The notes beneath the pieces were generated by a model that saw only the letters and a program-made list of their open reading frames with translations, made no database searches and was not told where the DNA came from. A DNA stretch of 64,000 nt from positions 3,904,001-3,968,000 of the forward strand of contig OY761556.1 in assembly GCA_963664705.1 (NCBI GenBank). The letters run 5' to 3'. This DNA is from Acidobacteriota bacterium (GTDB lineage: Bacteria; Acidobacteriota; UBA6911). Positions 33,145 through 50,725 of this stretch are shown here, piece after piece (the first letter of the stretch is position 1; each line of letters begins with the position of its first letter). Made by a program: the position numbers and the translations under genes.

Positions 33145-34557
33145 CTAGCGCAGGGCTTTTTTTGTAAACCCTCCATCGCCATAAATAAACATATAGCGCT
33201 TCCCGTCTATCACGGTTTCCAGCACAACTTCCCCATGCCATAGCTGGCTCAGATAAACCAGCGTCTTTTCGGTATATTCCAGTTGCAGATCCCTGCCATC
33301 GTGATAATGCACCAGGTAAAGCGTATGGTTATGTCCAAAATCGGCATCATCCACTTTAATAACGGGCACGGCATTCATGCCGATGTTTTTCAGCAGAGCT
33401 TCCTTTACCTGTGTCCAGCCGGCTTTGTCCGCAATATTTTTGACGATTTTCAAATCACCTCGGCTCTCATACTCAAAGATCTTCAGTTCGCGCAGCAGCT
33501 CTTCGGTAAGATGACGCCGGAGAAAAGAAGAGTCCCGGTCCGATTCGCGGACTTCAAACAGCTTCGTATCCCCGGTTCGATCATCCGGATCATCTGAGCC
33601 GCCGCTGTTCCGGTGAATTGCTTGCCAGACCGCCAATCCGACATGATAGGGATTCAGCCCCATTTCAAAAGGTCGGACAACCTGATTGTGACGGACGATG
33701 AACTCGAGGTGGAGCGACTCCGGCAATCGCAGGCTATCCAGGATCCTTTTATGCCAGTATGTGGCCCAACCCTCATTCATGATCTTGGTTTCGATCTGCG
33801 GAATAAAGTACTGAGATTCCTCATGAACAATTGTAAGGATGTCTTTCTCCCACCGGGTCAGATGATGGTTGTTGTCCCGGATGAAGAGGAGCAGGTCTTC
33901 ATCCGGGACAGGAGGAGTTTTGTCCAGGTCGGGAATTGAGGATATCTTCCGACGATGGACCGACCGAAAAGGATCGGCGGGCGGAAAGGCCGATTCGGTC
34001 AGGACGGTTCGCTCTTCTTCCGGTGAACGTTTTCGTATTGCCAGATTTCGACGGCACTGCAACGCAATGGCGTGAGCCGCGTCGAGCAGTTTTTCAACAT
34101 TCTCGAGCCCTATGCTCGGATCCTCAACATAGTGACGGACGCGATCTCCATGCGCTTTAAATGCATCGATCGTGTATTCAGCCCGTGTGCTCCGGTACGT
34201 GAAGTTGTTTTTGAAAAAGTCGTTGTGGCCGTACACGTGGGCCATTGTCAGAATTTGAAGAAGCAGGGTATTGTCCAGCATCAGGTAAGCAAGGGCCGGA
34301 TTCGAGTTGATCACCATTTCATACGGAAGCCCGGAAACCCCATAATCATAGAGAGTTTTTTGTTTCTCATAGGTTTTGCCGTAGGACCAATGCGGGTAAT
34401 GGGAAGGTACGCCCGAATAGGCGATGGCGGATAGCATCTGTTTGTGATCGCATATCTCGAATTGCTGCGGATAGCAGTCCAATCCAAACTCCCGCACTTT
34501 ATCCTGTATCCGGGAGTCCCAGGCTTCGAGATCCTCAATGCTGTATATGTGGCTCAT
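33145..34557 (-). CDS. SpoVR/YcgB family protein
   Basis: HWSYGK, YEMVINSNP, AHVYGHNDFF, TKIMNEGWA, NPY. Confidence 0.93.
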   Translation of the reverse strand: MSHIYSIEDLEAWDSRIQDKVREFGLDCYPQQFEICDHKQMLSAIAYSGVPSHYPHWSYGKTYEKQKTLYDYGVSGLPYEMVINSNPALAYLMLDNTLLLQILTMAHVYGHNDFFKNNFTYRSTRAEYTIDAFKAHGDRVRHYVEDPSIGLENVEKLLDAAHAIALQCRRNLAIRKRSPEEERTVLTESAFPPADPFRSVHRRKISSIPDLDKTPPVPDEDLLLFIRDNNHHLTRWEKDILTIVHEESQYFIPQIETKIMNEGWATYWHKRILDSLRLPESLHLEFIVRHNQVVRPFEMGLNPYHVGLAVWQAIHRNSGGSDDPDDRTGDTKLFEVRESDRDSSFLRRHLTEELLRELKIFEYESRGDLKIVKNIADKAGWTQVKEALLKNIGMNAVPVIKVDDADFGHNHTLYLVHYHDGRDLQLEYTEKTLVYLSQLWHGEVVLETVIDGKRYMFIYGDGGFTKKALR

Positions 34558-34568
34558 CCTGTTCTTTC

Positions 34569-35780
34569 CTAGGCGTTCATCCGGTCAGCCGAATCGCGGT
34601 CCTTTGACAGGAAGGTTCTGAACGACGGATAGACGTCCTCTTTTCGTTCAATCCGGATTGTGAGGAAATTGGGAGCCTGCAGCCTTCGGAACACGGTCAT
34701 CATCGAGCTTTCACTCGAATAGGAAAAATGTCCGTATGGCTTAATCTCCCCATACCCAAACAGATTGCACACTTCGCACAACTCCCGCGCGCGGCGCAGA
34801 GCAGTTTCATTGTCCGCTTCAAAGTTATCGCCATCGGAACAGTGAAACGCATAAATGTTCCAAAGCGAGGGATGATATCGGGCGGCCACTATCTCCAGCG
34901 CTCGCTCATACGCAGAAGAAATCAACGTTCCTCCGGCCTCTCCTTTGCTGAAGAACTCTTCTTCCGTCACCTCGCTTGCCTGCGCATGATGCGCAATGAA
35001 TACCACCTCCACATTCCGATACCTGGTCCCGACAAACTGGCACAATAGAAAGAAAAAGCTGCGGGCAAGATACTTCTTCATTGTATCCATGGAACCGGAG
35101 GTATCCATGAGGCAGAACACAACCGCATTCGATTCCTTTCGAATGTCGGCGCTTACATGGCGGTACACCAGGTCGTCTTCGTGAAAGGGAAAACGCTCAT
35201 TCGCTTCGCCAATGTCTCTGTCGGTGGATTTCTGTGCAGCAAATCGACGGCGGATCTTCTCCTTGACAGTTCTCCTTTTATCCAGTCGAACACGGATTCC
35301 GACCGATCGATAGCCCTTGCGACGCGTCTGCCGCTCCGATTCAATTTCGCGCAGTTTTTTTCGCTCGAGATCAGGCAATTCGAGATCCTCGAACATGATA
35401 TTTATCAGTTCATCGAGCGTGACGTCGGTTTCGTAGTAATCGATGCCCGGCTGGTTCCCAGCCTTTCCATCTCTCGCCGGATCCGCGCTATCCTCAATAA
35501 TGTCCCCCGGCTCCAGATCGCCTCTGCCTTGAGCGACTCCGGTCGAATTTTCTCCGTAGACGAATCGATATTCCTTGATGCCTCGTATCGGAACTTTGAT
35601 GATCCGATCCCGTTCTCTGCCGATGATCGACTCCTCCGCAATGATATCGGCTATATTCTCCCGGATAGATTGCCGGACCTTTTCGCGATGACGCATTCGG
35701 TCGCCGGCTGAGCGATCACTGTGCTCCGCATCTGAAGCACGGTATGGACGAAATATCGTTTCCCACATAATCAAACCCAA
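34569..35780 (-). CDS. YeaH/YhbH (DUF444, vWA-like) protein
   Basis: MDTSGSM, GGTLISS, HCSDGDN, FGYGEI; start may be a few codons later. Confidence 0.92.
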   Translation of the reverse strand: MGLIMWETIFRPYRASDAEHSDRSAGDRMRHREKVRQSIRENIADIIAEESIIGRERDRIIKVPIRGIKEYRFVYGENSTGVAQGRGDLEPGDIIEDSADPARDGKAGNQPGIDYYETDVTLDELINIMFEDLELPDLERKKLREIESERQTRRKGYRSVGIRVRLDKRRTVKEKIRRRFAAQKSTDRDIGEANERFPFHEDDLVYRHVSADIRKESNAVVFCLMDTSGSMDTMKKYLARSFFFLLCQFVGTRYRNVEVVFIAHHAQASEVTEEEFFSKGEAGGTLISSAYERALEIVAARYHPSLWNIYAFHCSDGDNFEADNETALRRARELCEVCNLFGYGEIKPYGHFSYSSESSMMTVFRRLQAPNFLTIRIERKEDVYPSFRTFLSKDRDSADRMNA

Positions 35781-35789
35781 TAGCCGCGC

Positions 35790-37727
35790 CTAGTCCTTCC
35801 ACAGGTTGTTGGCCGCATACTTGAGCACTACATCCACGCAATTCTCACAGTATCCATTGGAAAGAAGGTTCTCGACCATTACGTTGTATTTCTCCGTCTG
35901 GCTTTCGTCCCTGGTGCGCGCTTTCGTAACAATGCGGCTGATATCCCGCACCGAGGTCATAAGCTTTTTCTCGATCGCTTCTTTCAGCGGCTCATAGCTC
36001 TGATAGCTGACCTTCACCCCTCTGCGGCTTGATGCCCAAAGATAGGCAATGACTTCCTGACGAAAACCATCCGCTGCAGATCCGATAATGGCAATCTGCT
36101 CCTCAATAGACTTCAGGAAGCTTTCATCCGGCTGGAGCTCTTCCTTGGTATTCGGATCCTTCACCTTTGTCTTGTTGACATAGGCTTCGGCATGATCCAG
36201 GTAATTCTGAAACAACGATTCCGCCTGTTCCTGGTACGAGTAAACAAAAGCCCTCGTAATTTCGCCCTCAAGGATCTCCAGGTATTCTTTGTGCAGAACA
36301 TCCTGCAGGAAATCCAGGTATTGCTTTCGCGTGTCATCCGGCAGGTCTTCTTCCTTGGTCCTCATAATGAGGGCTTCCCGCACACTGATTGGATTGATGC
36401 AGTTTCCCTTGATATTGTCGGACAGGGCGTCATCCAGTGCCTTCATGATAAACCTGGTGGAAATGCCATTCATGCCCTCGCTCTTGGCATCATCCCGCAG
36501 CTCATGGATATCAATTTTTTTCGTTCTTCCCTTTTCGACTACCTCTTCCCCGTTATAAAGCTTGAGTTTCGTCATGAGATCGCACTTCGCGGTTGGAGTG
36601 AGCCTGGAAAGAATGGCAAACATCGAAGCAATCTCCAGGGTATGGGGAGCGATGTGTGCCCTAAAATCCGAGTTGTGCAGGATTTTCTGGTAAATCTTCA
36701 CCTCCTCGGAAAGGCGGAGATTATAGGGAACCTTGACGACAACAATGCGGTCGAGAATGGCTTCATTCGTATGATCCGATTTGAACTTTTGCCACTCCGC
36801 TTCGTTGGAGTGCGCCATAATCACGGTATCGACATACACCATGCCATGACGCCCGGGAGCCGGAATGACTTTCTCCTGCGTTGCGGTGATCATGGCATGG
36901 AGGTATTCGGTTTCATTCTTGAATACCTCGATAAACTCCACCATTCCCCGGTTTCCCACATTGAGGGCACCATTCAGATCAAGCACTCGGGGATCCCCTT
37001 CCGAGTACTTATCCAGTTTCGATATATCCTCGCTCCCGATAAGCACAGAGGTATCCTGGTTGTTGGGATCCACTGGAGGAACAACCCCTAACCCCACGCG
37101 GTTTCTCTTTGAAAACGATTTGGCCACGACCGGAACTTCCTCATAGCGCTCTCCATATTGATCCTTTAGCCTGAACCGACAGACCGGGCAAAGGTCTCCT
37201 TCGATTTTGACGCCAAGCATTTTTTCGAATTCTTTCCGGAGATGACGCGGCAGCAGATGCAGAGGATCCTCGGACATCGGGCAATCCTCGATAGCGTAAA
37301 ATGGCCCACTTTCCTCCAGACCCCGCTGCAGTTTTTCTACCAGCGAACTCTTACCGGACCCGACGGGCCCCATGAGGTACAGGACTTGCCGACTCTCCTC
37401 CCCCTTCAGCGACGCGGAATGGAAATACCTCGCAATTTTCGCAACCACTTTTTCAATTCCGAAGAACTGGTCAGAGAAAAACCGGTAGACTTTCAGAGGC
37501 TCATCTTTAAAAAGCCTTTGGACGTGGGGATTGTCAGACTCGTGGATATCCGCAACACCGGCAGCGAGGATAACATCATATATTCTGGAATGTGCAAGCT
37601 TGGCCAGCCCAGGATCCTTTTTGACCAATTCAAGGTACTCGATAAACTTACCTTTCCAGTGCCGGCTCTCCCGGCTGGATCGATCCTCACGGATCATCTG
37701 TTGAAACATGGATTCGCGTTCTTCCAT
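35790..37727 (-). CDS. prkA: PrkA/YeaG family serine kinase/ATPase
   Basis: GPVGSGKSS, NRGMVEFIEVFK, HSNEAEW, EAILDR, GISTRF. Confidence 0.93.
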   Translation of the reverse strand: MEERESMFQQMIREDRSSRESRHWKGKFIEYLELVKKDPGLAKLAHSRIYDVILAAGVADIHESDNPHVQRLFKDEPLKVYRFFSDQFFGIEKVVAKIARYFHSASLKGEESRQVLYLMGPVGSGKSSLVEKLQRGLEESGPFYAIEDCPMSEDPLHLLPRHLRKEFEKMLGVKIEGDLCPVCRFRLKDQYGERYEEVPVVAKSFSKRNRVGLGVVPPVDPNNQDTSVLIGSEDISKLDKYSEGDPRVLDLNGALNVGNRGMVEFIEVFKNETEYLHAMITATQEKVIPAPGRHGMVYVDTVIMAHSNEAEWQKFKSDHTNEAILDRIVVVKVPYNLRLSEEVKIYQKILHNSDFRAHIAPHTLEIASMFAILSRLTPTAKCDLMTKLKLYNGEEVVEKGRTKKIDIHELRDDAKSEGMNGISTRFIMKALDDALSDNIKGNCINPISVREALIMRTKEEDLPDDTRKQYLDFLQDVLHKEYLEILEGEITRAFVYSYQEQAESLFQNYLDHAEAYVNKTKVKDPNTKEELQPDESFLKSIEEQIAIIGSAADGFRQEVIAYLWASSRRGVKVSYQSYEPLKEAIEKKLMTSVRDISRIVTKARTRDESQTEKYNVMVENLLSNGYCENCVDVVLKYAANNLWKD

Positions 37728-40099: not shown

Positions 40100-40594
40100 T
40101 TAGTGCTGCTGCGGAGGCGGTGGAGGCATTCCCATCCCCCTGCCACCATCCCTGCCGCCATCCCTGCCGCCAAAGGGGGAGTGTCGCAGTCTTGAGTTCA
40201 TTTCCTTCCAAAGCCCCTCGAATTTCTTCTGCTGCTCCGGGTTGAGAACCGCCATCAATTTTTTGTTGGTTTCGGTGAATATGGCCTCAATCTTCGGCTG
40301 TTGAGCGGAAAATATCCCCTCGATTTTAGGCCGATCCTGCGCCCGAATGTCGTCCATCTGCTTCCGAGACTCTGCCATAATCCTTCCGAATTCCGCCTCC
40401 TGATCGGGCGTCAGCTCCAGCAGTTCTTTCATTCTCTGCCGGCCCTGCGGCGGTCCCGGAGGATAATTCTGGCTGAACCTCTTATCCGCGCCTCTTGAAT
40501 GACTCAATCCGAGGTACATGCCTCCGGCTCCCATCACGCACCCCAACAAAAAAACGGCAATCAGGACAGCCAGCGCTCGAGGGCGGTTGGTCAT
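40100..40594 (-). CDS. Membrane-anchored periplasmic protein, Spy/CpxP-like
   Basis: N-terminal TM helix, LELTPDQ and LNPEQ motifs, Gly/Pro-rich tail. Confidence 0.75.
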   Translation of the reverse strand: MTNRPRALAVLIAVFLLGCVMGAGGMYLGLSHSRGADKRFSQNYPPGPPQGRQRMKELLELTPDQEAEFGRIMAESRKQMDDIRAQDRPKIEGIFSAQQPKIEAIFTETNKKLMAVLNPEQQKKFEGLWKEMNSRLRHSPFGGRDGGRDGGRGMGMPPPPPQQH

Positions 40595-41055
40595 TGTGAA
40601 GCTCCCTCCTGTTCAAGCCAGAGGATAAGATCGTTTTCGCTATGAGCCTTCGACAGCGTGCTTTGGGAAAGAGCCTGGATATGTCCGGCATCCGCCTCTT
40701 CCATCAGAGTCTCGTATTCGTTGTAGGCACTCACAGGCCGGCTTCCCGTCATGAGCCATAGGGATGAAAGGAACACCCCGACCAGCAAAAGAGCCGCCAA
40801 TGCAGGCACCGGGCGAAGCCAGGAAATAACGTCGGAAGCCCAGCTGGTTTCAGGCTGAAACGCTTTGCGGGCAATCTGGTCCGCAAGATTCAACGGCCGA
40901 ATTTCCTCGCTCTTTAGAAGAGCAACGACGTTATTGAGCAGCAGGTTCCTGGCCCGGCATTCCTCACAACCATCAAGATGCAATTCGAACTGCTTCCGAT
41001 CATTGGAACCCAGTTCATTATCCCGATATCTATCAAACAGTTCACAAATGCTCAT
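40591..41055 (-). CDS. zf-HC2 (ZAS) anti-sigma factor
   Basis: HLDGCEEC (HxxxCxxC) plus a TM helix; follows the ECF sigma gene. Confidence 0.85.
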   Translation of the reverse strand: MSICELFDRYRDNELGSNDRKQFELHLDGCEECRARNLLLNNVVALLKSEEIRPLNLADQIARKAFQPETSWASDVISWLRPVPALAALLLVGVFLSSLWLMTGSRPVSAYNEYETLMEEADAGHIQALSQSTLSKAHSENDLILWLEQEGASQ

Positions 41056-41059
41056 ATTT

Positions 41060-41668
41060 TTATGTTCGCTCCTTTCTCTTATTGCCCGAAAGATAGGCGC
41101 GAAACTTTTTTTGCAGTTCAACTCTAGCTCTGGAAACACGTACCCTGGCCGCCACCTCGGATGTGCCCAACATTGCCGCCACCTCTTCGTAAGGCCTATC
41201 CTCTACTTCCCTCAATACAAATGCGGCTTTGTATTTGGGATTCAGCCCCTCCAGCAGATGCTGGGCAACCTGCGCATATTTATCGCTGCCCTCCATGCTG
41301 GATGCCCCCCAATCCCCTTCGTTGGAAAGGTCTTTGAGCAACCGCTCCTGATCGAACTCGCTAAGTTCCGACCAAAGCTGGGTTTTCCGGCCTTTTCTCC
41401 GCCGAAGTTGATCGATGCAGTGGTTTGTTGCGATGCGTAAGACCCAGGGGCCGAAGGGCAGCTTGAGGTCGAATTTGCGAAGCGCATTGAAGGCTCGAAG
41501 GAAAACCTCCTGGACGGCATCCTCGTTTTCCGACGAGTTGCCCAATATCCTGTGGACGGTTCCCCACACAGCCGCCTGGTATCGACGCACCAACTCGGCA
41601 AAAGCTCCTTGATCCCCTTTGAGCGTGCTCTCGATCAGGTCCGAATCTGCCGAATCCACCATGCTCAT
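41060..41668 (-). CDS. ECF RNA polymerase sigma factor
   Basis: GDQGAFAELVRRY, EDAVQEVF, WVLRIATNHCID, YEEVA...RVSRAR. Confidence 0.93.
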   Translation of the reverse strand: MSMVDSADSDLIESTLKGDQGAFAELVRRYQAAVWGTVHRILGNSSENEDAVQEVFLRAFNALRKFDLKLPFGPWVLRIATNHCIDQLRRRKGRKTQLWSELSEFDQERLLKDLSNEGDWGASSMEGSDKYAQVAQHLLEGLNPKYKAAFVLREVEDRPYEEVAAMLGTSEVAARVRVSRARVELQKKFRAYLSGNKRKERT

Positions 41669-41674
41669 TAATCA

Positions 41675-41701
41675 GTTACGGGAGGAGGCCAAGTTGTTAC
41701 A
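41675..41701 (-). promoter_or_regulatory. Possible ECF-type autoregulatory promoter
   Basis: Minus strand TGTAAC-N15-CGTAAC ending 6 nt before the ATG; spacing is slightly short of typical. Confidence 0.35.
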
Positions 41702-43350: not shown

Positions 43351-43391
43351 AAAAAAATGCCAGCCTCATTTGTAGATTTGTGAGGCTGGCA
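43351..43391 (-). terminator. Intrinsic terminator
   Basis: TGCCAGCCTCA / TGAGGCTGGCA perfect 11-bp stem with an A7 run (U-tract on the minus strand). Confidence 0.8.
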
Positions 43392-43397
43392 GGCGAA

Positions 43398-43832
43398 CTA
43401 ATAGTGGATATGCAGATGAGCTTTTACGATTCGACGTACGCCGGGCTGAATGCCTTCCCACCTGGAACTGGAACTCTTTCGAATCACGATAATTTTCTGG
43501 TCAAGAGTCAGTTCTTCGACTCCAGGCAGATCAAACAGATCCTTCAACAGTCCGTCGTCTGTAACAGGAACCTCAAGCCGGCTATGGTATTGGTGTGATG
43601 TTTCGGTCAGCTTTGTTCCCAGGTAGAACATTCCGACATCCGAAGCCGGGCTGAGGGAATCGGAAACCACTCCGGAATCCGCTTCCTCTTCGACCCCGGT
43701 ATTTCTGGTCCCATAATAGCGAAATACAAAGGTAACCAGGACGACCAGGGCCGCAATGAGGACCAGGAAAAAAAGCAGGTTCGTTACTTCATACTTCTTC
43801 AGGCGTCTTCTTCCGGAACCGGGATTGCTCAA
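43398..43832 (-). CDS. Membrane-anchored protein with an Nfu/NifU N-terminal-like domain
   Basis: TM helix, then LLKDLFDLPGVEELTL...IVIRK....WEGIQPGV; TTG start with GGAGAGG RBS. Confidence 0.65.
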   Translation of the reverse strand: MSNPGSGRRRLKKYEVTNLLFFLVLIAALVVLVTFVFRYYGTRNTGVEEEADSGVVSDSLSPASDVGMFYLGTKLTETSHQYHSRLEVPVTDDGLLKDLFDLPGVEELTLDQKIIVIRKSSSSRWEGIQPGVRRIVKAHLHIHY

Positions 43833-43889: not shown

Positions 43890-45125
43890 CTACTCATATC
43901 GCAGACACTCGATTGGATCCAGGTTCGAAGCTTGAACGGCCGGATAAATTCCAAAAATCAGACCGATAAGCGAACTGACTCCGAAGGACAACCCAATGGA
44001 TCCGGTTGTAATGATTGTGCTCCATCCGGAGAAAACAGACACGGCTTTCGAAATACCATAGCCTAGCGCAACTCCTATCAAACCGCCCGCCAGACTAATA
44101 GCAATAGCTTCGGCCATGAACTGCATCCGGATATCGAACTTCTTGGCACCGATGGCACGCCGCAATCCTATCTCATTGGTTCTTTCCAGAACAGAGGCGA
44201 GCATGATGTTCATGATCCCGATGCCGCCGACCAGCAGAGAGATACTGGCAATAGCACCCATTACGACATTGAAGATCCCCTGCGTCCTCTGGTTCTGTTC
44301 CAGGAGCTTTTCAGGGACAACGATTGAGTAATCATCCACATATCGGTGCATAACCGACATGAGATTGTTGATTGTAGAAGCCTGCTCTTTGATATTAGCT
44401 TCTGGGCCGATCTGAACCACAATTTCATTCAGTTCGTTCTCTATTGATTCGGTGTCGAATTTTCTGACCGCGGTAGTAATCGGGATGTAAATATCGTTAT
44501 TCGGATTCTGGACTTTTACTCCTTCGAATTCCTGTTTATCTACGACGGAATCAGCCAGTACCCCGACAACGGTCATCCAGATGTCATTGATTTTGATCTG
44601 TTTGTTCAGCACATCCCCGAAGCCGAACAGTTTCTGCTTGGCCACGATTCCGAGGACGCAGACTTGGGCGTTGGCTTGCTCATCTGACTGAAGGAAAAAA
44701 GACCCCTGCAGCAGTTTCAGATTCTGGATGATCGGATAGGTACTGCTTACGCCAAGAACTCGGCTGTCGCTGCGCGCTTTTTCCGAATTGATCTGATAAG
44801 TCTTGACCAACCGGCTTGCAGAAATGAGCGGTTTCGGCTTCAGAATTGTTCCGAGCGCATCGACATCCCGCAGACTGACTCCGAGTGATTCGGTGCGGAT
44901 CTGCTTCAGCTCTTCGCTTTTGAATTCCTTGGCTTGAATGATGATGTTTCGGATTCCGAAATTTTCGATGATTTTCAGGCTCTCGTGTTCCGCACCGGCA
45001 CCGATCGAAAGCATCGCGATCACGGCACCTACACCGAAGATCATCCCAAGCATGGTCAGAAACGAACGGAGTTTGTGTCGTCCCAGGCTGGCCAAAGCGC
45101 CAATCATTGTCTCTGCTGATATCAT
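43890..45125 (-). CDS. MacB/FtsX-type ABC permease without a nucleotide-binding domain
   Basis: RSFLTMLGMIFGVGAVIAM, ISLLVGGIGIMNIMLASVLERTNEIGLRRAIGA, FGIYPA...LDPIECLRYE. Confidence 0.93.
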   Translation of the reverse strand: MISAETMIGALASLGRHKLRSFLTMLGMIFGVGAVIAMLSIGAGAEHESLKIIENFGIRNIIIQAKEFKSEELKQIRTESLGVSLRDVDALGTILKPKPLISASRLVKTYQINSEKARSDSRVLGVSSTYPIIQNLKLLQGSFFLQSDEQANAQVCVLGIVAKQKLFGFGDVLNKQIKINDIWMTVVGVLADSVVDKQEFEGVKVQNPNNDIYIPITTAVRKFDTESIENELNEIVVQIGPEANIKEQASTINNLMSVMHRYVDDYSIVVPEKLLEQNQRTQGIFNVVMGAIASISLLVGGIGIMNIMLASVLERTNEIGLRRAIGAKKFDIRMQFMAEAIAISLAGGLIGVALGYGISKAVSVFSGWSTIITTGSIGLSFGVSSLIGLIFGIYPAVQASNLDPIECLRYE

Positions 45126-45199
45126 ATAAAATCTGACCTCATATTCTCAGAAGCAGCTATGTCAGAATCAATCCAATATTTTATGTATGCGCGATCCGG

Positions 45200-46597
45200 C
45201 TAGCGCCCACCCCTCATCATCATCATGCCGCCTCCGGGAGGCATACCGCCCATACGGCCATTTCCACTGGAGGATCCTTTACTGAAATCCGGGAGATAGA
45301 GTTTGCGCTGTTCAAAGGGATTCCTGAGGGCTATAAGGGCGCCATCATCCACTCCGCTCAGGATAACGGCTTCACCGTGTGAACTGAGCCCTGTCTTCAC
45401 ATTTTTCGCAATGAACTTTTCGCCCTTCTTTTCGTAAACCAGACTGTCCCGCTCCTTTTCCCTGACCGTAACCGCGCTCGAAGGAACGACAAAGCAGGAT
45501 TCGTACTTTTCGAGAACGACTTCCCCTCGCAAATTCATGCCGGGCCGGATCCGTTTAAGATCTTTCTCGGCATCCGTGATCGAAACATCGCATGTGAAAT
45601 ATCGAAGGACCGAGTTGCGCTCCAGTGCTCCCGCCACAGTTGCCACGTTGCGCAGCGTGCCGTGGTACTCTTTTTCAGGAATAGCATCCAGCTTAATGAC
45701 GACCGGCTGCCCTTTGGTAAGGCTTCCCCCGTCTCTTTCAAGAACGTAAATTCGGGCTTGGAGGATATCCAGGTTCACAAGCTCGACCAGTGCTTGTCCG
45801 GGCTGGCACTCATCTCCGATTTGCGGCTCCTGCCTGCGGTCTCTCCGGTACAAGACCAGGCCTGATTTGGGGGCTTTCAATTCCAGGGAACTCAATGTAG
45901 TTTGAAGCACCTGAACTTCCGATTGGGCCCTGTTCCGCTCGATTGAGAGAATCTGCTGATCGGACCTTGCAATGCGTTGCTGCGTTTTGGTTTTGCTCTT
46001 CAGAAATTCGATCTTTTCCTTGTCGTAATTCGCATCCGCCTGCGCAGTGATGATATCCCACTTGGAAAAAATCGACTCATCTTCGGGCATTACCGTCACG
46101 TCATAGTCGTATTGCATCTCAGCGGTCTTGCGGTCGATGCCCAGCGTCTTTTCGTCGGTCGTCTGTTTCAGCGTTTTTATGTTGGTGTTTTGCTGATTCG
46201 CCTGAAGGGTATTCTGCTGCTTCTCGAGGCTCAGCTTGGCATCCGTGCTGTCGAACCGGATAACCGTATCCCCTTCGCGCACAAACGTACCTTCTTTGAT
46301 CAGCCAGGATAATTTCAAGCTGCCTGAGGGTGTATTGGGCGTGGGAACCGGCGTGGTTTCGAGTCCGACGACTTCTCCCGTTGACGGAACCGTAAGCAAA
46401 AACGGCTGACGGCTCAATTTTGTCACAGGAATAGGATCGTCCTCGGTAGCGGCCAGAACTTTTGAAAGCTGTGTTGAGATCTTATCTCGGAACTGGAACA
46501 GGCATATTCCGGCAATTATGAGAATAATCAATCCAACAATCCGCCCAACCTTCATCATAGAACCGCGGGGCTTTTTTTCTTCTTCGTGGTATACCAT
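45200..46597 (-). CDS. Membrane fusion (periplasmic adaptor) protein 3
   Basis: TM anchor, EGTFVREGD, long coiled coil, LKAPKSGLV, RPGMN, VPSSAV; Gly/Met tail. Confidence 0.88.
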   Translation of the reverse strand: MVYHEEEKKPRGSMMKVGRIVGLIILIIAGICLFQFRDKISTQLSKVLAATEDDPIPVTKLSRQPFLLTVPSTGEVVGLETTPVPTPNTPSGSLKLSWLIKEGTFVREGDTVIRFDSTDAKLSLEKQQNTLQANQQNTNIKTLKQTTDEKTLGIDRKTAEMQYDYDVTVMPEDESIFSKWDIITAQADANYDKEKIEFLKSKTKTQQRIARSDQQILSIERNRAQSEVQVLQTTLSSLELKAPKSGLVLYRRDRRQEPQIGDECQPGQALVELVNLDILQARIYVLERDGGSLTKGQPVVIKLDAIPEKEYHGTLRNVATVAGALERNSVLRYFTCDVSITDAEKDLKRIRPGMNLRGEVVLEKYESCFVVPSSAVTVREKERDSLVYEKKGEKFIAKNVKTGLSSHGEAVILSGVDDGALIALRNPFEQRKLYLPDFSKGSSSGNGRMGGMPPGGGMMMMRGGR

Positions 46598-46615
46598 TTC
46601 GCATCACCTCAGGAC

Positions 46616-47842
46616 TTATGCTTTCGGTTTTACCCGAATTTTTTCGTCGGCGTTCAAACCGGATTCCACCACTGCCGTAAGGCCATCGTTCGTTCGCAGC
46701 TGTATTTCACGCCATTCGAAAGTCTTGGTAGGCTCTCTCCATACCTGAACAAAGGATCGGCCATCTCTTTCCTGAATGCTGGACAGGGGAATGACAACAA
46801 CCTTTGAATATTGCCCGACCTGGATTTGTGCTTTTAAATTCATTCCCGGGCGCAGCTGCTTCATATCTGCGCCTGAAAGCTGCACGTAGGCGTCACAAAT
46901 CTTCTGAGGCCGGTCAAACGATGCCTGCTTCAATATGGATCCAATGCCTACCACTTTACCTGTAAATGTTTTTCCCTGGACTGAATCCACCGTTATGTTT
47001 GCATCGTTACCGATCTTGACTTTCCCGGAGTCGATTTCATCCACGGAGACCCGTGCCCGGATGGTGGACAGATCCGGGATTTCCAGCACTGCATCCATGC
47101 CGAAAACGTTACTGCCGATTGTCTTGGCTTCGTTGTTCCAATCGCGTTTGTAAATCACCACACCGGCTACCGGGGCACGGACGGTATAGGAATCCATAGC
47201 GTCCATCAAACTGTCCATTCGATCCCGGTAGTGCCGCTCGTTGCTGCGGGAAATCTGCAAGTCGTATTGTGAGCTGTTGGTCTGGTATTTAAGCTTCTTC
47301 TCCAGCAACTCAACGTTAGTCTTGGCTGCGTCCCTTTGAATTTTGGTCTGTTCAACCTCAATGCTGCTGATCACTTCTGCCTGCGAAGCCAGCTTCATTT
47401 CCAGTTTCTGGAGGTTTGATTTGGCTTCTTCCAGGCTCAGCCTGAGGTTTTTCAGGTTAATATCGGAATTAGACCGCTTGTTCTGCCGATCTTCCTGTAC
47501 ACGCTGGAAATTTGCGGTTTCATCGCGAAGGCTCCGGGCGATATCCGAAGTATCGAAATCCATCAGGAAATCTCCTTCGGCCACCGAAGTCCCTTCCTCC
47601 ACCATGCGGGTCAGCTTAAACCGCCGCTGGTTTCGAACCTGGGGTGGAGTGATGCTGACGCTGCGTTCGGCCACTAGTGTCCCGGTCGCACTGATGATCA
47701 GAGGAAAATTGACGCGCTGCGCCGTGATCAGATCCTTGTCGCTGATGTTTGCGGAAACATTCGTTGATTTGGCCATCCAATACACGCCGGCGGCGATGAG
47801 CAGTACCAGTACTATAACCGTAATCCATTTCTGCTTTGTCAT
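46616..47842 (-). CDS. Membrane fusion (periplasmic adaptor) protein 2
   Basis: EGTSVAEGD, VRAPVAGVV, VDEID, LRPGMN, IPLSSI. Confidence 0.88.
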   Translation of the reverse strand: MTKQKWITVIVLVLLIAAGVYWMAKSTNVSANISDKDLITAQRVNFPLIISATGTLVAERSVSITPPQVRNQRRFKLTRMVEEGTSVAEGDFLMDFDTSDIARSLRDETANFQRVQEDRQNKRSNSDINLKNLRLSLEEAKSNLQKLEMKLASQAEVISSIEVEQTKIQRDAAKTNVELLEKKLKYQTNSSQYDLQISRSNERHYRDRMDSLMDAMDSYTVRAPVAGVVIYKRDWNNEAKTIGSNVFGMDAVLEIPDLSTIRARVSVDEIDSGKVKIGNDANITVDSVQGKTFTGKVVGIGSILKQASFDRPQKICDAYVQLSGADMKQLRPGMNLKAQIQVGQYSKVVVIPLSSIQERDGRSFVQVWREPTKTFEWREIQLRTNDGLTAVVESGLNADEKIRVKPKA

Positions 47843-47854
47843 ATATCCTCCCCG

Positions 47855-49147
47855 CTATCTTTGTACTGGAAGCAGTGATTCGCCTGCCGATACGCCGGAG
47901 ACAACTTGAATAAAGCGATCACCAACAGCTCCGAGCTGAACGAACTGCTGGGCTGCGGTTTTCGGTTCCGTTCCCTTTATAACGTAACTGCGACCCTGGG
48001 TGTCGTATCCAAGGTATTCGCGCGGGATAGCAGGCGTACCTTTTGCCAAAATCAACGGGACTCTGACACGCGCCGTCATTCCCGGCTTCAACTGCTGAAC
48101 ATCAAGCTTGTCCGGCTGAATTACAGCCTGGAAGACCTTCTTTGAAGAGGCGAAGTTCTTTCGGGATGCAACGCTGGTCAACGAAACAACTCTTCCTCCG
48201 ATTTCAACGCCCGGCACCGCATCAAAGCTGATCAGGCAGCGCATATCGGTGAGCAGGGCACCGTATTCCGTGTCATAGACATATCCGACAACCTGCATGC
48301 TCTCGAGATCGGGCAGACTGGCTACTTCCATACCATGGAAAAGCGTGTCGCCGGGCTGGACTTTCCGGTTGTTCTGCCAGTTGTCGCCGTAGATCAGAAT
48401 ACCGTCCTGCGGAGCATCGATTTTTAAGAGGGTCATATCGCTGTTGATCTTCTTTAAATTGATTTCCGCCTGAGACCGGTTGATTTCAACCAGAGACAGT
48501 TGCGATGCGTAGCTTTTTTCGAAGTTATCAAGGCTTTCTTTCGCCTTATCCAGAGCCAACTTCGACTTTTGGAGATTGAGCTGGTACTTCTGATATGTAT
48601 TGCCGGGAAGAAGATCTTTGCTGATCTTTCCATAGAGCTCATCCTGCTTCACCTGCGCTTGCGCCTGAGAAACCGAATTCAGCAGGTCGCAACGCTGGGC
48701 CTCAAGATCGGATTTGGTCTTCTCGATGTTCAGTTGGGCCTCATCAAGGCTCCGTTCGGCTTCCGACTTATTGCTCATCAGGGAGGAATCATCAAATTCG
48801 ACAATCCGATCTCCCTTTTTGATTTGGGATCCCTCGGGGGCAAGGAAGGTCACCATATTGGAAAAACTGCTCCGGATATCCGGTGCGGCAATAGACGTCG
48901 AGCGTGCTGCACGCAATTCACCGGTCAGAATGACTTCCTTCTGAATTGATTCCGTTCCGACTTTATACGCGGCGATTTTATTCACGGGCGCTGCGTCTGA
49001 AACGGGGGGACGATCACTGGCTTTGCCAGTGCTGATACCGGGCCCCTGTGCCGAGGCAGGCTGAAGCTGAATCCCGGCTGCAACGAAAACAAACAGGATG
49101 AGCGCAGCCGCAAAAATCGTGAAGGTGTTATTTTTTTTCTTTGCCAT
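47855..49147 (-). CDS. Membrane fusion (periplasmic adaptor) protein 1
   Basis: EGSQIKKGD, IDAPQDGIL, LKPGMTA. Confidence 0.88.
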   Translation of the reverse strand: MAKKKNNTFTIFAAALILFVFVAAGIQLQPASAQGPGISTGKASDRPPVSDAAPVNKIAAYKVGTESIQKEVILTGELRAARSTSIAAPDIRSSFSNMVTFLAPEGSQIKKGDRIVEFDDSSLMSNKSEAERSLDEAQLNIEKTKSDLEAQRCDLLNSVSQAQAQVKQDELYGKISKDLLPGNTYQKYQLNLQKSKLALDKAKESLDNFEKSYASQLSLVEINRSQAEINLKKINSDMTLLKIDAPQDGILIYGDNWQNNRKVQPGDTLFHGMEVASLPDLESMQVVGYVYDTEYGALLTDMRCLISFDAVPGVEIGGRVVSLTSVASRKNFASSKKVFQAVIQPDKLDVQQLKPGMTARVRVPLILAKGTPAIPREYLGYDTQGRSYVIKGTEPKTAAQQFVQLGAVGDRFIQVVSGVSAGESLLPVQR

Positions 49148-49177
49148 AGTGCCAGATCTCGCGTTTCAGTTAGTGAA

Positions 49178-50350
49178 TCAAAACTGCCCTCTGGAAAATT
49201 GGGTTGGGGGCGCTTTGAGGGTCTTTACCCATGAAGACCAATTCTCTTCTATCTTCGAGAAATCTTTTCCCAACACGTCGTCCCGAGTGACAAACTCGCG
49301 GCTTTCTTTGCCATCCACAGCCTGCTTGACCAGTTCTCGAACCTTATCAATACCCGCTTTTTCAACGAGAAAGGCAAACAACGTGCTCGCTTGTCCGTCA
49401 AATAGCATTCGATCTTGTTCATCTTTGGGCAGATTTCTTTGGCCGCCGTTGCGGGAACCGCCGTTTCCGCCAAAATTGCCTCCGCCACCAAAGTTGCCGC
49501 CTCCGAAGTTGCCATTGCCCATCCCGCGGCCATTAAACCCGCCTTGAGGCATTCCCTGAGGCATCCCCTGAGGCATCCCTTGAGGCATCCCGCCCCCCTG
49601 TTGTCCACCCTGTCCGCCGCTCATTCCACCGCGACCGCCTGACCCGTTCTGGTCCGAGGAAGATGCGACAAATGGACGAGACATGGCGACGACGTCCTCC
49701 ATGGGAAACGTCTGGTCAAGGTGCTGCTGGAGGTATGTAATATTAAGAGGAGCGCCGCTGGCGTAAGATGCAATCCCTATATCAAGCCAGTCAGGCAGCG
49801 GACTTTTGCCCATGTCATCCAGACGCGAGGACCGGAATTTCAAATCTTTATCCAGCATAGTCTGTAAAACGGCATAAGCAATCTGCTGCGTAACATTTGT
49901 TACCGACTGCTTCTCTGCTTCCGCAAGCATTTCCGGAGGGCGGTTTTTAATGCGGGCAAGAATTTCTGCGGGGATAGCTCCCCCCATTTGGGATTTCATG
50001 CGCGCCATATTTTCCTGAATCCGCACATCCGGTGTCGTAGCGATCAAAGTCCAGCTATAGCCCTTTTTCAGAATCATGGGCTCATAGAGCGAATCTTTCT
50101 GTTCGAGAGTCGAACAGATAAAGATCGCACCTTTCGGCAACTCCGTTCCAAACAGGCTTTTCAGGCGGGCAATTGCCTCAGAAGCCGGTTTTTCATACGG
50201 AGCGATCGTCTGGCGGTTTGAAGCGTAAAAATCAATCCCTGTCACTACTTTGAAGGATACAAATCTTTTAAATGTGACAGTTTGAGCCTGAACGGAACTA
50301 ATTCCGAGCGTTGCGAAGAAAAACAAAGCGGTAATGATAGGTCGAATCAT
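49178..50350 (-). CDS. Secreted protein with a degenerate peptidase-MA-like fold and a Gly/Gln-rich insert
   Basis: Signal peptide (VQA-Q); LPDWLDIGIASY; (GMPQ)4 and GGNFG repeats; QASTLFAFLVEKAG...IEENW. Confidence 0.7.
   Translation of the reverse strand: MIRPIITALFFFATLGISSVQAQTVTFKRFVSFKVVTGIDFYASNRQTIAPYEKPASEAIARLKSLFGTELPKGAIFICSTLEQKDSLYEPMILKKGYSWTLIATTPDVRIQENMARMKSQMGGAIPAEILARIKNRPPEMLAEAEKQSVTNVTQQIAYAVLQTMLDKDLKFRSSRLDDMGKSPLPDWLDIGIASYASGAPLNITYLQQHLDQTFPMEDVVAMSRPFVASSSDQNGSGGRGGMSGGQGGQQGGGMPQGMPQGMPQGMPQGGFNGRGMGNGNFGGGNFGGGGNFGGNGGSRNGGQRNLPKDEQDRMLFDGQASTLFAFLVEKAGIDKVRELVKQAVDGKESREFVTRDDVLGKDFSKIEENWSSWVKTLKAPPTQFSRGQF
49544..49591. repeat. 12-bp coding tandem repeat x4 (GMPQ)
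   Basis: (Y)TGAGGCAT(Y)CC four times. Confidence 0.9.
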
Positions 50351-50649: not shown

Positions 50650-50725
50650 TGGAGGCGCCGAGCGGATTCGAACCGCTGCATCGAGGTTTTGCAGACCTCT
50701 CCCTTAGCCACTTGGGTACGGCGCC
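50650..50725 (-). tRNA. tRNA-Cys(GCA)
   Basis: Reverse complement folds as a cloverleaf: GGCGCCG/CGGCGCC acceptor stem, GAGGT-CTGCAAA-ACCTC anticodon arm, TTCGAAT T-loop, U73, encoded CCA. Confidence 0.97.

Follow-up and report, generated by a model that had tools for sequence, protein, structure and literature searches.

A broadly conserved three-adaptor MacB-type permease operon of Acidobacteriota, an uncharacterised variant of the MacAB-TolC pump class

FtsX-type permeases encoded without an adjacent ATPase are already known from Acidobacteria as the ADOP proteins, duplicated polypeptides of about 800 amino acids (aa). The periplasmic ring of the Mce systems is heteromeric, and yknWXYZ of Bacillus subtilis is under SigW control. 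Here we describe an operon that is like each of these in part. It lies at positions 43,890 to 50,350 of a 64,000-nucleotide stretch of an Acidobacteriota genome (contig OY761556.1; the whole stretch is called the window), and encodes a predicted secreted protein (gene 1, G1), three adaptors of the membrane-fusion protein kind (M1, M2 and M3) and a MacB-type permease. The source genome is referred to as G000, and locus numbers beginning with C1 are those of its contig. Close relatives carry the label uncultured Acidobacteriota.

The permease resembles the ADOPs in having no ATPase beside it, but it is a single module of 411 aa that scores 109.8 bits against the ADOP model (TIGR03434), for which the cut-off is 622.3. 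With MacAB-TolC (PDB 5NIK, 9QGY), which is described as assembling a MacB dimer, a single hexamer of MacA and a single trimer of TolC (PMC5985334), the system shares a MacB_PCD/FtsX permease with four transmembrane (TM) segments, the MacA-like adaptor fold and a candidate ATPase of the MacB type. In contrast to MacAB, however, the operon has three paralogous adaptors instead of one, lacks the canonical RLS tip, carries an accessory pseudo-peptidase, and encodes adaptors and a permease that score under the curated MacA and MacB cut-offs, while its likely ATPase is separate, usually unlinked and probably shared. TriABC-OpmH of Pseudomonas aeruginosa also has distinct adaptor paralogues, TriA and TriB, which are described as playing distinct roles within one ring, 3:(3+3):3 (PMC13328181), but there the pump is a proton-driven resistance-nodulation-division (RND) transporter with two adaptors, and here an ATP-binding cassette (ABC) permease goes with three. 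YknWXYZ likewise combines a split ATPase and permease with a hexameric adaptor and an accessory protein, in peptide protection (PMC5985334); it has one adaptor, an ATPase within the operon, a membrane protein as the accessory and no outer membrane. In mycobacterial Mce1 and Mce4, several permease systems use one unlinked ATPase, MceG (PMC9947336); their folds are unrelated and they import lipids, so this parallel is conceptual only. No description of a three-adaptor MacB-type system was found in the titles and abstract openings of the literature searched, subscription papers and supplements being outside the search, and PMC4319957 was set aside as a precedent because its three membrane-fusion proteins, by its account, sit at different loci.

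As detailed below, the system is real and broadly conserved, and represents a variant, as yet uncharacterised, within a known class of pumps (type VII ABC/MacAB-TolC). The original prediction, which proposed an undescribed system, thus holds for the variant but not for its components, since every core part is of the type VII ABC/MacAB kind.

Conservation of the three-adaptor operon

We found 122 distinct operons, 109 of which had enough flanking DNA to be kept, the other 13 being dropped for short context. The permease subfamily was present in 73 of 101 genomes of the class and in 89 of 301 genomes sampled from the phylum. Three adaptor modules were found in 107 of the 109 operons (106 automatically, and L080 by inspection), which answers the proposed search for conserved neighbourhoods of three membrane-fusion proteins with an FtsX/MacB_PCD permease. 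An ATPase was encoded inside nine of the 109 operons and was absent from 100, so the layout without an ATPase is the usual one and is not explained by a local deletion; the outer-membrane factor (OMF) was inside the operon in three and divergent from it in seven. The suspicion that the copy in the window is a deletion remnant of a normal operon with ATPase and TolC fails on this count. That members of the family employ an ATPase of the MacB type follows from its occurrence in the nine operons and in a complete ATPase-M1-M2-M3-permease operon on a Pseudoalteromonas chromid, whose cultured host makes the system experimentally reachable. A metagenome scan returned 80 loci, mostly from close relatives and many on short contigs, none of them with an ATPase or OMF match.

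The five minus-strand open reading frames (ORFs) of the window are separated, from G1 to the permease, by 30, 12, 18 and 74 bp (Table 1); ORFs and domain searches confirm the co-oriented arrangement first proposed. The predicted divergence of the adaptors was also borne out (22-26% pairwise identity), as was the lack of an ATPase and of an OMF, neither of which is encoded anywhere in the window. The nearest ones lie just past its end, about 14 kb from G1 on the opposite strand, in a cluster that was rejected as a partner: an adaptor of its own is encoded there, and the ATPases share only 28-30% identity with a MacB-type one.

The permease carries MacB_PCD (residues 21-251) and FtsX (291-404) domains, both above cut-off, and has the four TM segments of a type VII ABC permease, the first two separated by a large periplasmic domain. 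It aligns only to positions 258-646 of the MacB model, with no fused N-terminal ATPase. Residues E314, R315, E318, G320, R322, R323, G326 and A327 were invariant in 34 aligned rows, and this stretch (314-327) is the TM2-TM3 coupling helix, at the position described for type VII transporters (PMC5985334). Identity across the full-length matches in the genus was 84-91%.

G000 also carries a second, paralogous operon with three adaptors and a permease, referred to as type B (L069, C1:5573367-5578750), which lacks G1, ATPase and OMF. Some type B operons of other classes end in an OMF (L271, L276, L277). One operon (L064:8439-9896, genome G014) holds an in-frame, off-register B2/B3 deletion chimera with a hairpin span of about 156 by hand count. 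Another (L080:5265-9444, G044), identified by eye, is interrupted by a transposase-like gene and by a reverse-transcriptase-like insertion of the group II intron type in the permease. In genus g14, a protein of about 790 aa without a Pfam match is encoded between an M1-M2 fusion and M3 (L056:8486-10852; also L081, L111 and L242).

The three adaptors and a putative mixed ring

In a quick tree of 77 adaptor rows, with support from the Shimodaira-Hasegawa-like approximate likelihood-ratio test (SH-aLRT), M1, M2 and M3 each formed one group across operon types (support 92, 94 and 99). As a held-out test, position profiles were built without the distant loci. With these, every non-B operon (28 of 28, Pseudoalteromonas included) had its three adaptors assigned to the right positions, as against three of eight type B operons. 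Thus, where MacAB-TolC has a single adaptor, three position-specific adaptor genes are retained. In 27 operons M1 and M2 are fused into one polypeptide, two further flagged fusions (of 29) having been dropped as artefacts of a frameshift (L043) and of a deletion chimera (L064). The model of one relative's fusion shows two full MacA-like modules joined by about 10 disordered linker residues (predicted local distance difference test score, pLDDT, 84; predicted template modelling score, pTM, 0.62), and MacA came first among the structural matches of a fused adaptor from a relative (E 2e-19). Engineered tandem AcrA fusions are described as functional (PMC13328181).

The length of the adaptor hairpin was taken as the number of residues between the two lipoyl half-motifs. 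This span was 127 in 32/32 M1, 30/32 M2 and 22/22 M3 proteins, in 23/23 and 22/23 of the fused halves, and in all three Pseudoalteromonas proteins. In other classes it was 127 in 79 of 81 adaptors, these rows partly overlapping the former, and in type B operons, that of G000 included, it was 126 (39 of 41). Among 26 other adaptors of G000 the span ranged from 72 to 215 and was never 126 or 127. Such equality at about 25% identity would be explained by a shared barrel, because this would need hairpins of matched length. In Pseudoalteromonas, M1 is a short protein of only 316 aa whose last domain is the barrel.

Where a hexamer stands on a dimer with two-fold symmetry, its seats are of three non-equivalent kinds, which would give one paralogue per seat. 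We infer from this geometry that the three adaptors likely form one mixed hexameric ring, (M1-M2-M3)x2, matching the two-fold permease dimer; the position-specific lineages, the fusions and the matched spans thus lend comparative support to the heteromeric channel originally proposed. If the ring is 2:2:2, each seat on the MacB-type dimer would have its own gene and could be mutated separately, which the MacA homohexamer forbids.

Candidate partners in trans and alternative readings

G000 holds six MacB-type permease loci without an adjacent ATPase, and it also encodes a pair of an adaptor (M4) and an ATPase without a permease (C1:5413512-5415730), beside parAB. The ATPase of this pair (C1:5415005-5415730) is of the MacB type, with intact Walker A and B motifs, signature and H-loop. 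The pair is part of a split MacAB-like system (L068, L070) whose permease pair lies 24 kb away (5388362-5390916), and in two other genomes (G025 and G026) the ATPase stands in a contiguous operon with M4 and the permease pair, its home system. The ATPase is single-copy in 85 of the 101 genomes, and an orthologue was found in 72 of the 73 that bear the three-adaptor permease, the remaining one being cut by a contig end. In family f11 the home permease pair was found in none of 14 genomes, yet the ATPase was kept in 12. M4 was not found in the three g14 genomes tested, nor beside the ATPase in four loci of genus g33. In eight of nine g14 genomes, the ATPase directly follows the three-adaptor permease; this in-operon enzyme is 67% identical to the C1:5415005 orphan, with the next best at 54%, and nests with its sisters from g33, a genus of the same family, within the orthologue clade (support 98). 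The in-operon ATPases of other classes are of the MacB type and fall outside that clade. A second orphan, C1:2127988, was rejected as the partner, being 44% identical to the g14 in-operon ATPase as against 67% for C1:5415005. These comparisons support the proposal of an ATPase borrowed in trans, and the suggested hunt for an orphan ATPase yielded a named candidate: the C1:5415005-5415730 enzyme likely powers the permease in trans, as a shared ATPase. With it, the question of what powers the MacB-type orphan permeases in Acidobacteriota has an answer that can be tested. Further ATPase-less permease loci of this type in G000 (C1:3795778-3798247, 5337899-5341783 and 6657524-6658621) are possible clients.

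For the exit duct, which had also been proposed to be borrowed, about 20 OMF genes are available in G000. A divergent OMF was present in all seven f11 loci examined, and the six that were compared had as their best G000 match the orphan C1:1221133 (34-36%; next 25-27%). This OMF family occurs in 97 of 101 genomes, as a housekeeping gene, and is present in at least two copies in 12 of 12 f11 genomes with the operon and in one copy in both that lack it. The comparison supports a duct supplied in trans, and C1:1221133-1222872 is its likely TolC-type candidate, with a weaker case than that for the ATPase.

Our preferred model, to which we assign a probability of about 0.6, joins these parts: a permease with a mixed three-adaptor hexamer, powered by the shared ATPase C1:5415005-5415730 and vented through the housekeeping OMF C1:1221133-1222872. 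M1, M2 and M3 would each fill one of the three seats on the permease dimer, as the TriA/TriB pair does on its RND pump; once the borrowed ATPase bound ATP, the periplasmic domains would close, and a periplasmic substrate would be driven through the ring and leave by the OMF, with G1, where present, helping by binding peptide. The most likely substrate would be an envelope-damaging peptide or amphiphile, judging from the neighbouring extracytoplasmic function (ECF) sigma, anti-sigma and Spy-like genes and from the MacB relatives. Several points weigh against this model. All of its pairings (adaptors, ATPase and OMF) are drawn from comparison, and the ATPase and OMF links each come from one lineage, f11, and may each reflect a single event. 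Two operons have only two modules (the chimeric L064, and L094, in which M1 is missing and frameshifts occur throughout). The type B adaptors cluster together (support 89), perhaps through a separate triplication, common ancestry may explain part of the equal hairpin span, and the pTM of the fusion model leaves the packing of its two halves unfixed. The RLS tip pattern, RxxxLxxxxxxS, is absent from all six three-adaptor proteins of G000 and all three of Pseudoalteromonas; of the 26 other G000 adaptors, 10 have it and 16 do not. Finally, the ECF promoter motif found at the operon has unequal spacers at its two sites (15 as against 16-17) and is absent upstream of the candidate ATPase, the candidate OMF and the type B operons; no co-regulation of the trans partners by this motif was found.

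The missing tip pattern, together with the rarity of an OMF inside the operon (3 of 109) and the Gram-positive MacA/MacB homologues described as functioning without an outer membrane (PMC5985334), could instead indicate that the ring, though truly mixed, operates with no OMF and is a YknX-like periplasmic machine that extracts or remodels an envelope component. We consider this unlikely, given the dedicated OMF duplicate beside the f11 operons, the OMFs within some type B operons and the long, length-matched hairpins. It is rather improbable that each adaptor forms a homo-oligomer of its own and that these take turns on one permease to serve different substrates or OMFs: their great divergence and the many OMF genes of the genome would suit such an arrangement, but not the M1-M2 fusions in 27 operons, the three modules in 107 of 109, the matched span or the short Pseudoalteromonas M1.

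The original prediction also suggested that the system might be dedicated to the G1 product, and G1 does begin with a signal peptide, stands at the head of its operons and is essentially restricted to them. However, it was found in only 41 of the 101 class genomes, as against 73 with the permease, and in 29 of 109 operons, so that the first gene co-occurs with the rest only in part. Since these belong to three families only, G1 is the accessory of one lineage and cannot be a general cargo; moreover, it is predicted to fold into a domain of some 40 kDa, while peptides described as MacB substrates have 42-70 residues (PMC5985334), and we regard a dedicated G1 secretion system as very improbable. 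That the operon is a degenerate remnant without ATPase and OMF, or an ATP-independent permease, could be read from the 100 operons without an ATPase, but is largely refuted by its intact ORFs, by the conservation of the permease in the genus and of its coupling residues, and by the MacB-type ATPases of nine operons and of Pseudoalteromonas. Over and above the preferred model, a bolder view is possible, which we offer tentatively and hold to be doubtful as a whole. The system would be a distinct type VII ABC exporter class across Acidobacteriota, reaching Gammaproteobacteria, in which the 6:2 symmetry mismatch of MacAB is resolved by an obligate C2-symmetric (M1-M2-M3)x2 ring whose tips are non-canonical. 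A single hub ATPase would power several orphan permeases, and in some lineages the periplasmic receptor for the cargo would be a dead peptidase.

Regulation, gene 1 and neighbouring features

The features of the locus are collected in Table 1. The motif TGTAAC-N16/17-CGTA was found upstream of G1 in 16 of 18 regions (13 with an exact N17 spacer by pattern, three with N16 by eye). Genome-wide, the ECF motif had four matches, two of which are the sites upstream of G1 and of the ECF sigma gene; another strong match is at G000 C1:1882627 (+). Envelope-stress (ECF) control of the operon is likely in the host genus. A sigma-70 and terminator scan gave results at chance level, and the hairpin listed in Table 1 was absent from the output of the simple terminator scan. 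The small gene downstream of the permease is likely a sixth operon gene in the host genus.

Table 1. Features of the operon and its surroundings (window positions)
Feature	Position	Strand	Remarks
G1	49178..50350	-	390 aa; predicted to be a secreted pseudo-peptidase of gluzincin fold that lacks the zinc ligands; accessory
Adaptor M1	47855..49147	-	430 aa; HlyD_D23/HlyD_3; N-terminus resembles a cleavable signal peptide (by eye)
Adaptor M2	46616..47842	-	408 aa; HlyD_D23/HlyD_3; hydrophobic anchor at N-terminus
Adaptor M3	45200..46597	-	465 aa; HlyD_D23/HlyD_3; N-terminal hydrophobic anchor, conserved C-terminal tail
MacB-type permease	43890..45125	-	411 aa, 4 TM, no fused ATPase; TM2-TM3 coupling region conserved
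Small TM + Nfu_N protein	43398..43832	-	57 bp downstream of permease; also after the permease in genus loci
Terminator-like hairpin + T-run	43351..43391	-	3' of TM + Nfu_N gene; 11-pair stem, -20 kcal/mol
ECF-type promoter TGTAAC-N17-CGTAA	50463..50490	-	about 110 bp upstream of G1; top genome-wide match to the position weight matrix
Same promoter boxes, 15-base spacer	41676..41701	-	upstream of ECF sigma gene; in 18/19 close ECF orthologue loci
ECF sigma factor	41060..41668	-	candidate regulator; syntenic in genus relatives
zf-HC2 anti-sigma factor	40591..41139	-	domain search, ECF locus comparison
LTXXQ (Spy/CpxP-like) periplasmic protein	40100..40594	-	domain search, ECF locus comparison

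G1 matches Peptidase_MA_2 weakly, and its model (pLDDT 78.6) contains a disordered Gly-rich insert at residues 228-301. Compared with the peptidase domain of collagenase, the model gave Z 12.3 and a root-mean-square deviation of 4.5 over 213 aligned residues, the top 13 rows all being gluzincin-type peptidases; a Foldseek search returned no match at E<=0.001. The gluzincin fold is thus present, but HExxH and the downstream Glu ligand are not. HExxH is missing from all 175 distinct members of the family, and I, V or M stands in place of the third-ligand Glu. Both HEAxH and WxDE are, by contrast, kept in three distant relatives. This dead peptidase fold suggests that G1 may be a lineage-specific peptide-binding helper.

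Gly/Met/Arg-rich low-complexity stretches recur in G1 (49178-50350), the M3 tail (45200-45290) and the Spy-like protein (40100-40200). GC content shows no shift across the operon. A tRNA-Cys gene (50650-50725, minus strand) lies just upstream of the promoter, and at 33145-37727 (minus strand) the window carries an ordinary PrkA-DUF444-SpoVR triad.

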